Assembly: GCA_958009085.1 (NCBI GenBank)
Contig: OY253668.1
Span: 1,116,001 to 1,180,000, forward strand
DNA length: 64,000 bases
Source of the DNA: Protoeuglena noctilucae
Taxonomy: Eukaryota
Direction: 5' to 3'
The number at the start of each line of letters is the position of its first letter. The stretch's first letter is position 1. The notes below the pieces were generated by a model. The model was not told the origin of the DNA. It ran no database searches and saw nothing but the letters and a program-made list of their open reading frames with translations. Of this stretch, positions 1,072-50,092 are shown piece by piece. The translations under genes and the position numbers were made by a program.

Positions 1072-4000
1072 ATGGACCTCGGGCTCCGGGAGGGCAGCCG
1101 TGCGAACGCCAGCTCAAGGTGATGGAGACTGGAGCACCGCGCCTGCCGCTGCGTCCCCGATGGCTGGCGTCTGACCATCTCCTCGTATTTCGTTGGTCGT
1201 GCAGGCGTGAGGGACGGCGGGGGAACGTGCGGGGGTCCCTGGACGTCTGTGGAAGCGTCGCGGAGGATCCGTCCCTCGCGGCAAGCCCCGCCGCGTCCCT
1301 GGGCTCCGTCTCGACGGTGCAACAGGGCATCGACTGGGTTTCTCTTGGGAAGGTGCTGATTGCGGACGAGGACGGGGGCCTTTCGGACAGCAGCGTCCAG
1401 CAAGTGCTGCAACTTTTGGACGGACACACTGCGGATGAGATTGAGGCAGGCGAGGGGCCGCGCGATATGTCGCAAATGCGCCAAACTACACTCCACTGGC
1501 GTCCGCACCGCTCGGCGCCGCGATCGCGCCCCAGGACGGGGCACGACGGGAGCTGGGGGGCCGCTGCTGCCGCGACGTGCCCGCGCGCCCGCCTCGTCCC
1601 GCAGCCACGTGTATGGCGCTGGAGTACGCGCGGCGTGAGGAAGACTTGCGTTCGGGCAGGTCTGAGATGCCCCGCGCGGCATCGTCGGGCGTGAAGGACG
1701 CCGCGGGGCGGCCTCCCCTGTCGCCCTACGGGGCACAGGACGCGGGGCCCGTCCAGGGAGGCGGCGGGGGCGCGGCCGGCACGCCCGGAGGGGCCACGAA
1801 AGACGCGCAGCAGCGCCGCGCGGGCGGCTGGGTGATTGGCCCCCCGCGGCCCGTGTCGGACGGGGTGTCGGTCACGGCCGACGGCAGCATGCGCCACGAG
1901 GTGACCGGCGGCGGTGCCGCTGCCCCCGCGCGGCCGTCTGAGCGCCGGCGGTGGCTCACTCTGACTCCATGCCGCGCCCGCAGGTGACCCCGCCCCGGGA
2001 GGCGATGTTCCGTCCGCACGCCCCGCGCACGCACCGTGTCGAGTTCGACGAGAGGCGCATGACGCCGCCGTCCCTGGGCATCCGCGCGGGCGACACGGTC
2101 GAGTTCGTCCCGAAGCGCGGGACCGTGCGGCAGACCCTCCGCATCGTCAACGCCGAGGCGCCCGCGGGCGCCAACGTGGTGGCGGAGAGCAGTCCGCTGG
2201 GCGGCTCCACCTCCGGGGCGCCGTTCGCGCACACGTTCAGGGACATGGGCTACTTCACGGTCATGTCCGACATCTACTCGTTCGTCAACGCGGACGTCGC
2301 GGTGCACCACCCAGACTGGACGCCGAGCGGGGCCTCCACGCCCATGCGCGGCACGGGCTACTCGACCGGCCGCACGTCTCGCTCCGGCCAGGTGGACCTG
2401 ACGCCCCTCCTGGAGGCCGAGGAGCGCCTCACCGACCCCACGACGTTCCGACGCGACGCCCCGCCGGCCGTGGCACCGCGTGAGGTGCTGCAGTCGCCGG
2501 GGCAGCGGAAGGACAGCCTGCGGCGGTCGCAGAACTTGCTGGAGGAGATCCGCGCCAAGGCGGGCGTGGACGGCCAGGAGCCCAGCAGCGACGCGTCCCA
2601 GTCGTACGACCCCGCTCTGCCCATGCCGGACCCGTCGGTGGCACAGACGGCCTCCCAGCGGCTCCGCACGCGTATGGCCGCGGCCGACCTGTCCGTCGAG
2701 CTGGCGGCCGACCGGGGCCGCGGGCAGGACGACGCCCGGGGCATGGGCGGCTTTGTCGCCTCCTCTCACCAGGCCATCCAGGCCCACCAGCGCATCGGCC
2801 ACCTCCGGGCCGTGGCGACGCTGCAGCCGCGCCACCCCAGCTGCTCCGCGATCCCGCAGTGCAAGTTTGACACCCTGAGCAAGTGAGCGGCGCATGCAAG
2901 GGGCGACGGGGCAGGGCAAGCACGCGCATGTACCCACCCTCCCCCGCCCACCCTCTGCTTGTTGCCATCCTCAGGGTCTTCTACTGGCGCGGCGGCGACG
3001 ACCTGAGTCCCGTGACCCAGCCCCGCCCGGGCGTGATTGTCGAGGGCGTGACGCGAGGAACCCCCGACGCGGACTCGGCGTGCAAGATCGTCGCGGCGAT
3101 GGCGCCCGTGACGGGTCATCTCTGCGCCAACCTCCGGAGGGCGGCCGTGTCGCAGGGCCCGCTCCTCGACCTGCCGTGCGTGCTCGAGGCCAAAGTCGAG
3201 GCGCTCCTCACCGCCAACACCCTGCCCCCGAGGCTCTCGCCGGGCTTCCTCCCGCTCGCCCTCTCCCTCCTCTTGCACCGCGAGCCCTCCCTCGCGGCCG
3301 GTATGGGCAGCTGCTGCGGGTGCGTGCCCCCCGCGGGCCCCGTCCCACCGACCACGACCCCACCGGTGCCCACGGCCGGCCCCCTCGCCTCCGAGTTCGG
3401 GCCCCACGGCCCGGCCGTGCTCAGCGTCTTCTCGGAGATCGCCGAGTGCCTCGCGGAGCTCACCCTGAGCCCCAGGGACGCCGCGGGGGCGGGGCCGGGG
3501 TCGCAGTCGGCGCGGCCTTCGTTGTCTCGGGTGCTGATGCAGGAGGCGTTCCTGGCCGTGTGGGTGGTGCACGTGCACGCGTCGATGGGGCGCGGGGTGC
3601 TGGACGGGCGGGACGTGGAGGGGCGGCACCGGGAGCTGGGCGACTGGCGCACCCCCGCCGCCGGCCGGGGTCGCAAGAAGGGCTTCGAGTCCCGGCCGCT
3701 CCCGAAGGAGGCGACGGAGGCGCTCGCGGCCGTGGAGTCCGGCCTGCGCCTCGGCCTGGGCCGTCAGGTGGACCTGCTCCGCAAAACCATGTTCTGGCGC
3801 TCCGACCCTGCCAAGCGCTGGGCCGAGTGGGCTGAGTCGTACCAGGGGTGGCTGGGCGGCCTGTCGGTGGCGCAGTGGCTGGCCGTCTTCTGCAACACGG
3901 CCACCAAGGCCTTCATCCCCGTCGCCGGCAGCCCCATCCCCCTCGACCACCGCGGCACGGCGCCCCCTCTGCCGGGCTTCATCCGAGCCGACCAGCCCCT

Positions 4001-21763: not shown

Positions 21764-21991
21764 AGCCCTCCAGCGCTTTCGCTAGCAGCCCCCGACGTCA
21801 ACTAGCCATTTCCCGACGCAGCGCTGCCGTTTGTGCGAGAATGGCACCCTGTCAGAGATGTGCAGCCCGTCAGGGCCGCGTTTTGCCGGAGATGCCGATC
21901 TTTCTCCGTGGCCCAGCATCGCCAGAGCTGCAGAGCGACAAGCAGCACCACGAGTCGAGGGAGCTGTCGTTCAGCAGCCTTTCTAAACAGC

Positions 21992-22535
21992 ATGCCACCG
22001 CGGGGAAGGGCGACGCAGTGCTTGTCGTGCATTCTGGAGGCCCTCGTCGGCCACACGGTCTTTGTCGAACTCAAAAATGACATCGTCATCAAGGCGAGCC
22101 CGTTTGGGGAACGAGGTCTTCAGTCTCTGCTGCGCTGCAGCGCGGGTGTGCAACGGCCCGGCTTTGACGCTCCACAGGGGAAGCTGGCCGAGGCGGACCC
22201 GCACATGAACATGCGAGTGACAGACGCGCAGATCAAGCGGCTCGACGGCAGCGCGAGAAGCGTCGAGGAGGTGTTTGTGCAGGGCGTGAACGTGAGATAC
22301 GTTCACCTGCCTCCCAAGGTGACTGAGTCGAGCCCCGCCGCCGGCCCAGTCGCCGACGGAACCCTCGCGTCCTGTCTGAGCTCGCTCCCGGAACCCACAG
22401 GTCGACGTGTCGAGGAGAGTGGAGGAGCACAGGGCCTCAATCGCAGCGCAGCACCGCCAGATGCGGACGATGCAGAACATGCGGTCGCAACAGGAGGCGG
22501 AGGCGAGGAGGGCGCGGGAGAGGGACCCACCGTGA
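21992..22535 (+). CDS. Sm-like protein, SmD1/LSm10-type (candidate U7 snRNP LSm10)
   Basis: Exons 21992-22093, 22178-22318 and 22401-22535 give CLSCILEALVGHTVFVELKNDIVIK|GKLAEADPHMNM...VFVQGVNVRYVHLP (Sm1/Sm2 motifs). It lacks the RG tail of SmD1. Confidence 0.75.
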
Positions 22536-22662
22536 GGCGTTCTGTCTTCCGACTTCAACCTGACTGCCACGACACAAAAAGCTGGCTGGCGCGAGGTGCG
22601 GGTCAAGATGCGCTGCGAGCGTTGGCACCCAGCCCCGGACAAAACGCACACGGCAGGCCCCT

Positions 22663-24262
22663 TCACTGCTGCTTGCACTCGGCGGGCTTCTCTTGCCCCG
22701 CGTTGCCCTTCGCCCCGTCGTCCTCCTCATCGTCGTCGTCCTCGTCCTCGTCCTCAGGGTCCCGGGCCTCACGACCTGGCGAGCATGGCAGGGGCGCGCG
22801 TGGGGCACCACCAACTCCCCCCGCGGAACTAGGACGGGCAGAACACCGCCCCGTTGCCCTCGGCAAGATAACGCAGTTGTTGTTTCTCTCCACGGTGGGG
22901 TCAGAAACTTACCAGGTACAAACAGAGTTCGTCATCGGGCAACGGGGCGACGGGGAGCGCTCAGGGAAGAATTGTGACGTCTCGGGAGCCAGAGGCCCCT
23001 CCGACATGTCTAAGTATCCTGCATTTCCGTCATCACGGCGCTCCCCGCCCAGTCATCGCGAGTCGCACGGCGCAGGCGGCTGTCAGCGGCCCCACCTTCC
23101 TCGCCCTCCTCGTCGTCGTCATCGTCGTCGTCCTCCATGTCCTCCAGCGCCTCCCCCGTGAACCACTTCACGGCGTTGGGGATGACCTCGTCGCGGATGG
23201 TCGTGCCCACGTCGTAGTGCTGCTCCAGCTCCATCTGCAGCTCCTCCATCTCGTCCTCGTCGGGCGCGTCGGCCATATCGGGGATCTGCGGGCCCAGCGG
23301 CGCCCAGGGTGCGGGTCAGCCCCGGAGGCCTGCACTGGCACGAGCCACAATGCAAGCGCTTGCGACCGCACCCGGGGCGGGTTGAAGAAGTTGAAGAAGC
23401 TGTCGGCCTTCTCCGTCTTGAACTGCGTCTTGCCCTTCTTCCCCTTCTTCTTCATCAGCTTCATCGTGATGTCCTTCCCCGCCGCCCACTCGATCTTGGT
23501 CCCCGTGCACTGCGCCAGCATGTCCTCGTCCTCCTCGGCCATCTCGTACGTCTTCTCCAGCACCGTGTTGGTGAAGTGCTCGTTCGGCGCAAACTCGAAG
23601 ACGAGTTTGAACCCCGGCGTCCCTTCCAACTTCTCGTCCTTGACGCTCCGGAGGTACTTGAGCACGTCGTGGTCCTTCTCGCCCATCATGGAAGCCACCT
23701 CGGGGTGATTGCGCAGGCACACGTACCAAAACTCGGGAACCCCGCGCACGTCGCCGTCCGCGCCCTGCACCTCCTCCGCCCCGTCCACAATCCTCTGCGC
23801 GCGCGCGGGAGGGCCACAACATTGCATCGCCCGCACGCTTCTTAGGGCGGCGCGCCCCGCGCCCGGCCGGCCCCGCGACCCCCGCACTTCTCGCCTGCCT
23901 GCGCTCGTACAGCGGCGTCATCAAGTTGCGATACTTCTCCTCCAGCGCCCGCGCCTCCTTCTCGTACTCCTCCTCCAGCCCATCGTGCTCCTCCTGGATC
24001 TCACGCAGCACCTGCGGCACACAGTCCAAAGACAGGTTACTCGATGCACAGGCTCGGTGCGAGCACGCGGGCACGCGGCGGGCAGGCCTGGGCTAAGCCT
24101 GACCTCGACACGCTGCTTGACGGCCTCGGGCAGGCCCTCGAAGTGCTGCTTGGCGAGGCCCGAGTCCATGCCCTGGATGTCGTTCAGCCGCTGCGCGATC
24201 ATCTCCTGGAACGCCGGGTTGCCCATCATGGCGTTTAGGTCGGCCTGGCGCCCGCCTGCCAT
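22663..24262 (-). CDS. NAP1: Nucleosome assembly protein 1 (histone chaperone)
   Basis: [70 protein letters not shown], acidic tail and C-terminal CaaX box CKQQ. Last intron is 22776-23095. Confidence 0.96.
22847..22949 (-). ncRNA. Intronic box C/D snoRNA with two guides (LSU A2640-equivalent and 18S U1206-equivalent)
   Basis: 13-bp perfect terminal stem (22847-22859/22937-22949). Box C ATGACGA (22935-22929), D' CTGA (22904-22901), D CCGA (22863-22860). Guides are antisense to the conserved rRNA sequences AAGATAACGCAG (LSU) and AAACTTACCAGGT (18S). Same strand as the host NAP1 intron. Confidence 0.88.
22951..23047 (-). ncRNA. Intronic box C/D snoRNA (D' guide to the 18S 5' region; D guide target not recognised)
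   Basis: 10-bp perfect terminal stem (22951-22960/23038-23047). Canonical box C GTGATGA (23036-23030) and box D CTGA (22964-22961). A 13-nt antisense to 18S CATGTCTAAGTAT precedes a D'-like CGGA. Confidence 0.82.
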
Positions 24263-48307: not shown

Positions 48308-50092
48308 CTACTTCTTCGGGGGGCACACGATCAGCACCATTTGGTTCCCCATGAGCTTCGGCTCCTGGTCCACGGCAGCCTCCTCGCCCAGGTCCTTGAT
48401 GAACCTGTCGAGCATCTCCTGCGCCTGGTTCTTGAATTGGAGCTCCCGACCCCGCATCTGCGGCGAGGACAGGGCGCGGACGTGCATGGGGGTGGCGGCG
48501 CGTGCAGAGGGGCCGTCGCAGGCTGCGCCGAGGTGCTGGTGGTGTGCTCAGTACAGCGGGGAAAAGTTGTCTGCACAAGGCCGAGGCCTTGACTCAGATC
48601 TGTTGAGCTTGAATTATTTCCGTTCATCATCGCAGGAGCACCAGCGCTGGACGGGCCATGCCTCGGACACAAGCACGACTCATCAGGAGTCAGAAACGAG
48701 GAATGCCATAGACGGTGCATGAATGTCGTCATAGGCGAGGGCCGAGTCGAGCCCGCCGCCCCTCCCCGGCCGCGCGCGTCGTCCCCCGACCGCCCCACCT
48801 GGACCACGATCTTGACCTTGTTGTTCTTCTGAATGAACTTCTGCGCGCTCCTCAGGCGGACCTGGTAGTCGTGCACGTCCGTGTTGGGCCTGAGCTTGAG
48901 CTCCTTCATGTCTGCGCGGAGGGAGGCCGCCACGGTTCGCTCGAACGCGCGCACATGGTCGCTCTTGCACACCCCTGGCCACCACCCGCGCGCTCCCTCA
49001 CCCATGACGCCCGCCTTCTGCTTCTTCTTCGCGTCCTTATCCGCCTTCTCCTTCTCGAACTTGAGCTTGGACCACTCCACCAGCCGGCACACGGGTGGCG
49101 ACGCGTCGGGCGTCACCAGCACCAGGTCCACCTCCGCCTCCATCGCCATCTCCAGCGCCTGGCTTGTAGGCATGATGCCCAGCGGCTCCTTCTCCTCCCC
49201 AATCACGCGCACCTCCGGAAAGCGGATCTGCTCGTTCATCAGGTACCCCGCGCCCCTGCGGTCACGCGCGAGGAGAGCGTCGCTGCCCAGGGCCTCTGAC
49301 GCCGCGCCCGGCCGGATGGGCCGGGGTATCCCAGCCATCAGACAAATGCCTCGATGTCTACATTCCACGCGCCCGTGAATGAATGGATCGGAGCGCGCGT
49401 CGGACTCGTCATCTGGTTTCGTCATCTCGTGGCTGGTGCGGCGGGCGGCGCAACAGGCGGCGCGCACTCGCCTCTGCGACTGATCCCTCGGACGCGGCGT
49501 CCTCGGCCCCCCTCCGCTGCCGCCGGGCGGCCGACTCCCCCTCCCTGCGAGTCGCGAGCGAGCTACTCTTTGCATGCCGCGCATGCCTTCCAGCAGCAGA
49601 GGGAAGCAGCACAACGCCCCGGGCGACTCACCGGCGCTGTTCGGACGATATCCGCCTCGGCCAGACGGGCCCGCGAAGGGCCGGGAGCTCCGCTCCCCAT
49701 CCTCTCCCGACGACGCCCCGTCCGATCCGCTCTCCTGGTACCCCTGCGGCGCCGGAGACGAGACCCGCTGCGGCCCAAGCTTCGTCAACGCAATCACGGA
49801 ACAGGGGCGCGCGTCCCGCGGCGGCAACGCACCCCTCGCCCCTGGTAGGGCCCGCGCCCCCGGCCCGGCCCGCTGCCCCGGCCCCCGCGCCCGCCACGAC
49901 CCGGCACGGACTTGAACGGCCGCACGATCTGCTCAGACTCCGCTTCGGCGAGTATCAACAGGCCGCGCGCCGGCGGGTATCGTCGCAATGGCCTGCAATC
50001 GCGGGGCTGGAGTTCCTGGTCAAGCTGCGGGCGGCGGCCGCCGCCTGGGCTCCGAGCGCCGGGTAGCGTAAGCGCAGAGCGAGCCGAAACAT
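48308..50092 (-). CDS. Organellar translation initiation factor IF-3; snoRNA host gene
   Basis: MNEQIRFPEVRVI, VDLVLVTPDASPPVCRL, KELKLRPNTDVHDY..RL, KVKIVVQ|MRGRE; TAG stop at 48308. The 5' exons and start (MFRLALRLR... at 50092) are uncertain. Confidence 0.9.
48541..48642 (-). ncRNA. Intronic box C/D snoRNA with two LSU guides (G2391- and G2409-equivalent)
   Basis: Box C ATGATGA (48630-48624), D' CTGA (48597-48594), D CTGA (48551-48548). Guides are antisense to CTGTTGAGCTTGA and CAGCGGGGAAA, both from the conserved LSU segment CAGCGGGGAAAGAAGACCCTGTTGAGCTTGA. Lies in IF3 intron 48458-48798. Confidence 0.93.
48660..48736 (-). ncRNA. Intronic box C/D snoRNA, snR57-equivalent guide (18S G1572-equivalent)
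   Basis: Short terminal stem. Box C ATGACGA (48732-48726), D' CTGA (48693-48690), C' TGATGA (48685-48680), D CCGA (48666-48663). A 13-nt antisense to 18S AACGAGGAATGCC precedes D'. Confidence 0.88.
49331..49436 (-). ncRNA. Intronic box C/D snoRNA, U15-like (LSU A2281- and G2288-equivalent)
   Basis: 7-bp stem CCAGCCA/TGGCTGG. Box C ATGACGA (49425-49419), D' CCGA (49403-49400), D CTGA (49341-49338). Guides are antisense to CAAATGCCTCG and CTCGTCATCT, with an extra antisense to ATGAATGGAT from the same LSU region. Lies in GC-AG intron 49256-49471 of IF3. Confidence 0.93.

Follow-up and report, generated by a model that had tools for sequence, protein, structure and literature searches.

Introns holding more than one small nucleolar RNA (snoRNA) gene have reportedly been found in Chlamydomonas. 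Such intronic clusters are also described in rice and Drosophila (PMC2780460) and in Ostreococcus tauri (clusters 3 and 5; PMC7671301); the main texts of these two papers, and of PMC5519232 and PMC12309372 below, are cited from excerpts. In the known clusters, more than one snoRNA gene occupies an intron of a protein-coding gene, on its sense strand, and the genes are presumably co-transcribed with the host. Box C/D snoRNAs are RNAs of 60–300 nt to which Snu13, Nop56, Nop58 and fibrillarin bind. Splicing and debranching release those encoded in introns, and exonucleases then trim them back as far as the core proteins that they carry; their assembly normally depends on the position relative to the branch point (PMC5519232). 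Long external stems aid the folding of such snoRNAs and can make the assembly splicing-independent (PMC5519232), and the stability of the terminal stem, flanking bases included, is given among the main determinants of expression in the SnoBIRD study (PMC12309372). Terminal stems of 2–5 base pairs (bp) are usual and those of 7 bp are very strong; a mature snoRNA has usually lost its terminal repeats by trimming, and only the genomic sequence shows them in full (PMC7671301). Here, we compare with these systems an intron in a stretch of 64,000 nucleotides (nt) of Protoeuglena noctilucae DNA (assembly GCA_958009085.1, contig OY253668.1, positions 1,116,001 to 1,180,000 of the forward strand). This whole stretch is referred to as the window hereafter, and all positions are counted from its first base. 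A first-pass annotation, made from the sequence alone, had pointed to a pair of adjacent box C/D snoRNA units in the last intron of a NAP1 gene lying in the window.

This intron (22776..23095, minus strand, 320 nt, GT..AG) is an intronic two-snoRNA cluster, as had been claimed: two predicted units lie in one spliced intron, and both are on the sense (minus) strand of the NAP host. Our reading, to which we assign a probability of about 0.7, is that two snoRNA genes are hosted by the last intron of the NAP1-like gene and that the long stems flanking these units act as assembly clamps. The layout is already known from other algae and plants, and the functional families of the guides are known as well. 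The novelty here is modest: the host gene, the wider distribution of an 18S guide, the fusion of two guides that are separate in O. tauri, and the extreme flanking stem.

The perfect stems, 10 bp in the upstream unit (unit 1) and 13 bp in the downstream unit (unit 2), are set apart by the single nucleotide 22950, and base 22949 can join either stem, being the last base of the 3′ arm of unit 1 and the first base of the 5′ arm of unit 2. The 1-nt separation and the GC-rich perfect stems of 13 and 10 bp, which had been noted by inspection, were reproduced by scripted indexing in which only perfect pairs were counted. Relative to the known intronic clusters, the pair has only two units, with virtually no spacer between the flanking repeats and with 22 nt between the D box of unit 1 and the C box of unit 2. 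Its stems are far beyond the usual stem length in O. tauri and beyond even the length regarded there as very strong (PMC7671301). In mammalian intronic C/D snoRNAs, as in the NAP1 pair, long paired flanks outside the mature ends join the C and D boxes, but the mammalian external stems enclose a single snoRNA per intron, whereas in the NAP1 pair two clamps share a junction nucleotide (PMC5519232).

Unit 1 (22949..23049, minus strand; about 101 nt with the full stem) is a box C/D snoRNA candidate on the basis of its boxes, stem and fold. Its 5′ arm GGCGGGGAGCGC (23038..23049) pairs with the 3′ arm GCGCUCCCCGUC (22949..22960) through 10 contiguous Watson-Crick pairs, then a G-U pair and then a G-C pair, giving 12 bp and a duplex energy of −25.9 kcal/mol. 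The C box GUGAUGA (23030..23036) and the D box CUGA (22961..22964) agree with the respective consensus, RUGAUGA in the case of the C box. Between the 5′ arm and GAUGA there are 3 nt (CGU), and this is the canonical asymmetry of a kink-turn.

Unit 2 (22847..22949, minus strand; about 103 nt with the full stem) is a dual-guide box C/D snoRNA candidate, for which the guides provide evidence in addition to the boxes, stem and fold. Its arms, CGCCCCGUUGCCC (22937..22949) and GGGCAACGGGGCG (22847..22859), form 13 contiguous Watson-Crick pairs with a duplex energy of −29.2 kcal/mol; the stem is extendable to 16 bp with two G-U pairs, but only by invading the arm of unit 1. From the end of the 3′ arm to the 3′ splice site there are 71 nt, which is near the distance favoured in animals. 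In the C box CCGAUGA (22932..22938), the GAUGA core (22936–22932) is intact and the first two C's lie in the stem. The D′ box is CUGA (22901..22904), and the D box is CCGA (22860..22863), a variant of CUGA.

The architecture of the pair is far beyond chance. In the whole 64-kb window and on both strands, we searched for GATGA followed 45–160 nt downstream by C[TC]GA, with at least 8 perfect bp in register around them. Exactly two matches were found, and these are the two NAP1 units, while no match occurred in any of 30 dinucleotide-preserving shuffles. When the whole intron was folded, the minimum free energy (MFE) structure formed both stems, and the pair probabilities in the partition function were about 0.8 for the stem of unit 1 and about 1.0 for that of unit 2; folding of the intron, which had been proposed as a check, thus favoured the annotated pair. 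For an intron of this composition the overall stability is not unusual (z = −1.4); the signal lies in the two local clamps and not in global structure.

The guides of unit 2 were examined against reference ribosomal DNA (rDNA). As references, we used 52 contigs (L047–L098) that are filed under bacterial or archaeal assemblies and carry a plant- or alga-type 18S motif, that is, 18S loci from eukaryotic contamination, fetched by a pattern containing the 18S site in question. Among them, L060 is, by Rfam, a full rDNA unit (small subunit 1–1831, 5.8S, and large subunit (LSU) 1–2271 plus 1883–3401). The D′ guide ACCUGGUAAGUUU (22905..22917, 13 nt) lies directly before the D′ box and is antisense to 18S AAACUUACCAGGU; an exact match over its 13 nt is present in L060, within the 18S, and in every one of the 52 loci, which had been selected on that very site. 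The D guide CUGCGUUAUCUU (22865..22876, 12 nt) is followed by one G and then the D box, and is antisense to LSU AAGAUAACGCAG, with a 12-nt exact match in the 3′ part of the L060 LSU. Counting to the fifth base upstream of the respective box gives proper spacing for both guides: the target of the D′ guide is the U of AAAC[U]UACC (position 1209 of the L060 18S), and that of the D guide is the A of AAG[A]UAAC. In complementarity and spacing, the latter corresponds to the target of snR68/SnoR68Y, the equivalent of yeast A2640. The previous claim that one unit targets both 18S and this LSU site is therefore borne out by the exact rRNA matches and by the tables for O. tauri and Arabidopsis described below.

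Both guides of unit 2 are letter-identical to guides of expressed O. tauri snoRNAs. One of these is Ot-CDsno6, which carries GTACCTGGTAAGTTT followed by CCGA, is predicted to target 18S U1177, lies in an intron of a midasin-related gene, and is expressed at a mean of about 6800 transcripts per million (TPM) (supplement of PMC7671301). The other is Ot-CDsno113, which carries ACTGCGTTATCTT, is predicted to target 25S A2472, and is listed with yeast snR68 and At-snoR68Y (supplement of PMC7671301); it lies in an intron of an RNA helicase gene, with a mean of about 180 TPM (PMC7671301). By BLASTN, both were found in three Ostreococcus species only (PMC7671301, Table S5). In our own reading of the printed sequences, taking CCGA as the D box of unit 2 brings to its fifth position the A that Ot-CDsno113 also has there. 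Unit 2 shares the LSU antisense element and this fifth-position A with yeast snR68, with SnoR68Y and SnoR27 of Arabidopsis, and with Ot-CDsno113. In contrast, the element of Ot-CDsno113 precedes D′ in a separate snoRNA, while that of unit 2 precedes D beside an 18S guide, and the curated family models of snR68/SnoR68Y have no Rfam-detectable homology to unit 2.

The likeness to Ot-CDsno6 extends beyond the guide. Besides the identical D′ antisense element, the two RNAs have in common a 21-nt block, TTGTACCTGGTAAGTTTC(C/T)GA, and, downstream of it, a similar C′-like stretch (…GAGAGAAA…), and both are intronic and on the sense strand. They differ in that Ot-CDsno6 stands alone in its intron of the midasin-related gene and has another D guide, a terminal stem of only about 5 bp, and a consensus C box. 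The 21-nt block was recognized by eye, and 4 nt of it do not pair with rRNA; since these 4 nt are also shared, the block would be better explained by common descent than by chance. The comparison suggests an old shared guide module, which would now be combined with an snR68-type guide in one RNA. When viral contigs were scanned with the 21-nt guide block, no locus was found; 46 viral-contig loci with the 18S motif were rejected as chance matches, as they lie in an unrelated context and not in rDNA.

The stretch is present in marine metatranscriptomes and in sequencing runs of one named organism. A ClpP-like protein encoded in the window is 78–82% identical to those of trebouxiophytes and Tetraselmis and 63% identical to that of Pseudoscourfieldia, and the nearest non-self NAP1 protein is 42–50% identical. 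From these values, the organism looks like a core-chlorophyte-type green alga and not a close relative of Ostreococcus. Relatives do exist, since proteins with 95% identity to the product of a neighbouring gene are found in public assemblies. For land plants, an Arabidopsis RiboMeth-seq table, also cited from an excerpt, gives 25S A2641 as a mapped 2′-O-methylated nucleotide under SnoR27 and SnoR68Y. The same excerpt has no 18S site between U1013 and C1219, and because of this, the 18S site of unit 2 seems not to be a land-plant site, if the numbering of L060 is close to that of Arabidopsis.

The host was also ascertained. The 320-nt joint 22773->23094, which corresponds to the snoRNA intron, was found in one RNA contig each in X1, X2 and X5, three RNA runs from two studies, and is absent from the DNA-like run X6. 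A public protein of 333 amino acids (P0003), ending with ...ECKQQ, spans the intron junction uninterrupted. The gene belongs to the NAP family by Pfam PF00956 (E 1.2e-43 for the exon 23794–23372; E 3.2e-10 for the exon 23285–23096). These data confirm the former assignment of the intron to a NAP-family gene as its last one. On the upstream side, the intron is bordered by the penultimate coding exon (23096..23285, minus strand; …EEGEE), recognized from its translation, the Pfam match and RNA contigs joining the flanking exons; on the downstream side, it is bordered by the last coding exon (22663..22775, minus strand), which encodes the acidic tail …PAECKQQ and ends in the stop codon TGA at 22665–22663. 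Over the stretch examined, the RNA contig joints gave four introns in the NAP gene, the snoRNA intron being the last, and its length is 3–4 times that of the other three (86, 100 and 92 nt). A NAP1 intron at 23795–23894 (minus strand) is skipped in the RNA contigs, and it is of the GC..AG type on the gene strand, because its plus-strand ends are CT..GC. In the literature, no paper about a snoRNA hosted in a NAP gene was found among the entries listed by a search.

The window contains a second intron of this kind. In an IF3-like gene, an intron of 340 nt (48459..48798, minus strand), starting with GTGGGGC, holds two C/D candidates. Unit A (about 48745–48650, minus strand) has the C box AUGACGA, the C′ box UGAUGA and the D box CCGA, together with a 10-nt guide to 18S AACGAGGAAU, a site which we take to be of the U25/snR57 type. 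Unit B (48645–48535, minus strand) has two guides to adjacent LSU sites, and its best Rfam match is the plant family snoZ107_R87 (32 bits, E 5e-05), below the gathering score. The presence of this second pair implies that two snoRNAs per intron are a habit of this genome. About 30 nt separate the boxes of the second pair, and its flanking stem consists of 3 bp, a loop and then 7 bp. Within the window, only the NAP1 pair has perfect 10–13-bp clamps that meet at a one-base junction. Both snoRNA introns, in NAP1 and in the IF3-like gene, start with GTGGGGC and have a complementary G/C-rich stretch (…GCCCCAC and …CCACCCC, respectively) near their 3′ ends; the stretches concerned are 23095–23082 with about 22815–22801, and 48798–48790 with about 48490–48480. 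In the predicted folds, each whole intron forms a panhandle enclosing its snoRNA pair.

How the NAP1 pair may work can be proposed as follows. The D′ guide of unit 2 would direct 2′-O-methylation of the 18S uridine corresponding to O. tauri U1177, and the D guide would direct methylation of the 25S adenosine equivalent to yeast A2640 and Arabidopsis A2641, the snR68/SnoR68Y site. It is in the precursor that the GC-rich inverted repeats (10–12 and 13 bp) would most likely act, by clamping each C box to its D box. Such clamps would let the core proteins assemble on both units regardless of the distance to the branch point; unit 1, lying 102 nt further upstream, would depend on its own clamp, while in unit 2 the stem may in addition make up for weak boxes. 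Once the intron has been spliced out and debranched, exonucleases would trim the RNAs to the protein-protected ends, normally removing most of the flanking repeats. If two separate RNAs are made, at least one cut must occur within the 22 nt between the boxes. What the data show is the sequence architecture, the splicing of the intron and the properly spaced matches of guides and targets; that the RNAs accumulate, that the rRNA sites are methylated, how the stems act and that this cut occurs, we infer. The stems are read first as assembly clamps because such roles are documented in PMC5519232, in PMC7671301 and in the SnoBIRD study; to judge from those excerpts, an assembly or folding clamp appears to be a better-documented role for long stems than a nuclease signal.

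Several observations weigh against the pair being a functional two-gene cluster. The boxes of unit 2 deviate from the consensus (5 of 7 positions agree in the C box and 3 of 4 in the D box), and the first filter that SnoBIRD applies to low-confidence predictions would class these deviations as those of a pseudogene, according to the excerpt of that paper (PMC12309372). Unit 2 also lacks the 3-nt asymmetric bulge, as its 13-bp stem directly adjoins GAUGA and CCGA; a stem perfect to this point leaves no bulge for a canonical kink-turn, and the kink would need the top 3 bp to be opened. The G-A dinucleotides required for the sheared pairs are kept. As for the C/D units of the first-pass annotation, their number, adjacency and minus-strand orientation stood, but unit 2 turned out to have non-consensus boxes and no bulge. 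Rfam gave no family at the gathering score, and none at E ≤ 10, on either unit; Esr41, H19_3 and sR1, which were listed for the intron at E 4–8, were rejected as noise. Four guide words were searched for in at least 65 metagenome NAP loci, obtained by comparing the NAP exon protein with metagenome contigs, and no match was found among the matches listed, which may miss closer relatives; the best of these loci is 49% identical and most are intron-less transcript contigs.

Unit 1 raises a further objection of this kind, in that its target could not be found in rRNA. It has no antisense match of at least 10 perfect bp in the complete plant-type 18S/5.8S/25S of L060, and when its 12-nt windows were compared with L060, allowing up to one mismatch and two G-U pairs, the sole match was in the intergenic spacer and none was in rRNA. 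The other 18S loci longer than 1500 nt likewise contain no antisense element of at least 10 nt. Ten guide words of unit 1 (8–10 nt) gave no occurrence in the O. tauri supplement, in which line breaks could hide matches. Comparison of the interior of unit 1 with the 64-kb window itself gave, apart from its own opposite strand, a single 11-mer at another place. Unit 1 is thus, as far as its sequence indicates, a structurally canonical C/D RNA and an apparent orphan by the rRNA comparisons, which covered L060 and the 18S loci but neither small nuclear RNAs nor the rRNA of the alga itself.

The RNA data also count against the cluster in part. All of the RNA runs are assembled contigs, in which small-RNA ends, strand and level are not visible. 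Moreover, the contigs of X1 and X2 that cover the intron are joined to a plus-strand spliced exon, and for this reason their cover is not evidence for the snoRNAs. They represent an antisense spliced transcript (22399..23123, plus strand), composed of an exon to about 22595, a GT..AG intron at 22596–22757, and a second part at 22758–23123; the joint 22593->22756 is found in record 1 of X1 and record 7 of X2, and the splice-site letters were checked on the plus strand. This transcript overlaps the last exon of NAP1 and crosses the snoRNA intron in antisense; the Sm/LSm-like gene upstream may extend into it as its 3′ part, or it may be an RNA of its own. The Sm/LSm-like coding sequence (…VFVELKNDIVIK…VQGVNVRYVHLPPKV…), assigned to its family by eye, lies at about 21950–22330 on the plus strand, convergent with NAP1. 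In X5, no contig covers 22377–22684, and nothing is concluded from this.

Among the other explanations, one concerns the stems themselves. Stacked end to end along the continuous strand 22960–22937, they could be a recognition element of the RNase III type, with a cut at or near 22950 separating the units. Nearly all of the 22 nt that separate the boxes are paired in the predicted fold, only the junction around 22950–22949 being ambiguous or unpaired (pair probabilities 0.2–0.5), and so they offer little target for a single-strand nuclease. Processing of yeast di- and polycistronic snoRNA precursors by RNase III (Rnt1) has reportedly been documented; against this, the Rnt1 sites in yeast are separate spacer stem-loops and not the terminal stems of the snoRNAs themselves. 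In addition, no nuclease site can be read from the sequence, and a pair can do without long perfect stems, as the second one in the window does with its wider spacing and interrupted stems. We therefore regard such a signal as doubtful, although it is compatible with the stems acting as clamps and the two do not exclude each other.

If no such cut takes place, or only a partial one, the mature product may be one stable twin snoRNA of about 200 nt (23049–22847) with two C/D modules. The clusters of O. tauri give stable multi-snoRNA forms (P1–P3) that are nearly as abundant as the mature snoRNA, and some O. tauri snoRNAs are seen solely in forms that exceed 200 nt (PMC7671301, excerpt). A single uncut product is thus not exotic, and it would not by itself disprove the snoRNAs. 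The dimer alone folds into both stems (−89 kcal/mol), and a 251-nt RNA contig of X5 (22812–23062) is wholly intronic and spans both units. However, this contig extends 13 and 35 nt past the stems, has a depth of 3.2 and carries no strand, so that a lariat, pre-mRNA or antisense RNA would fit it equally, and we think the twin product unlikely.

A more far-reaching interpretation can be built on the missing bulge. The bulge-less long stems would replace the kink-turn asymmetry and rescue degenerate boxes; a three-way junction, made of the flank helix and the two clamps with a continuous 24-nt strand, would yield a stable twin snoRNP (small nucleolar ribonucleoprotein) or be cut at the junction nucleotide. 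As O. tauri has the same box variants and stable multi-unit forms, this non-canonical mode of assembly and processing might be shared by green picoalgae. We offer this as a speculation and consider it improbable.

The deviating boxes may alternatively mean that the intron passively carries snoRNA pseudogenes, one or both of the units being decaying or silent copies. That unit 2 has degenerate boxes (C and D) and no bulge, that unit 1 has no detectable target, and that Rfam gives no match would all fit this. Nevertheless, decay would strike the stems and guides first, and here no pair is broken in the stems of 10 and 13 bp, while two guides of 12–13 nt are intact and correctly spaced from D and D′. 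The box variants themselves are also present, by eye, in expressed O. tauri snoRNAs: Ot-CDsno6, which is highly expressed, has CCGA as its D′ box, and in the expressed Ot-CDsno7 the stem is abutted by CCGAUGA. CCGA occurs again as the D box of another unit in the window. Decay is thus quite unlikely to account for the pair. Finally, it is very improbable that the functional product is the plus-strand spliced transcript of X1 and X2, with the repeats serving that RNA or a double-stranded RNA formed with the intron: its contig depth is about half that of the NAP1 mRNA contigs, but the boxes, the guide spacing and the rRNA antisense elements make sense on the minus strand only, and convergent overlapping transcripts may just reflect a compact genome.

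The NAP1 pair, read as a two-gene cluster with clamping stems, does not overturn the current understanding of intronic snoRNAs. It adds two snoRNA genes, and two more in passing, for an alga whose snoRNAs are invisible to Rfam at the gathering thresholds. An 18S guide that has so far been reported only from Ostreococcus is found to be present also in a marine alga that is core-chlorophyte-like and only distantly related. In this alga, one snoRNA combines it with a widely conserved guide of the snR68 type, and this is a clear case of guide modules recombined between snoRNAs and host genes. The extreme stems with their one-base junction provide a compact natural test case for how two snoRNPs are assembled on, and separated from, one intron.

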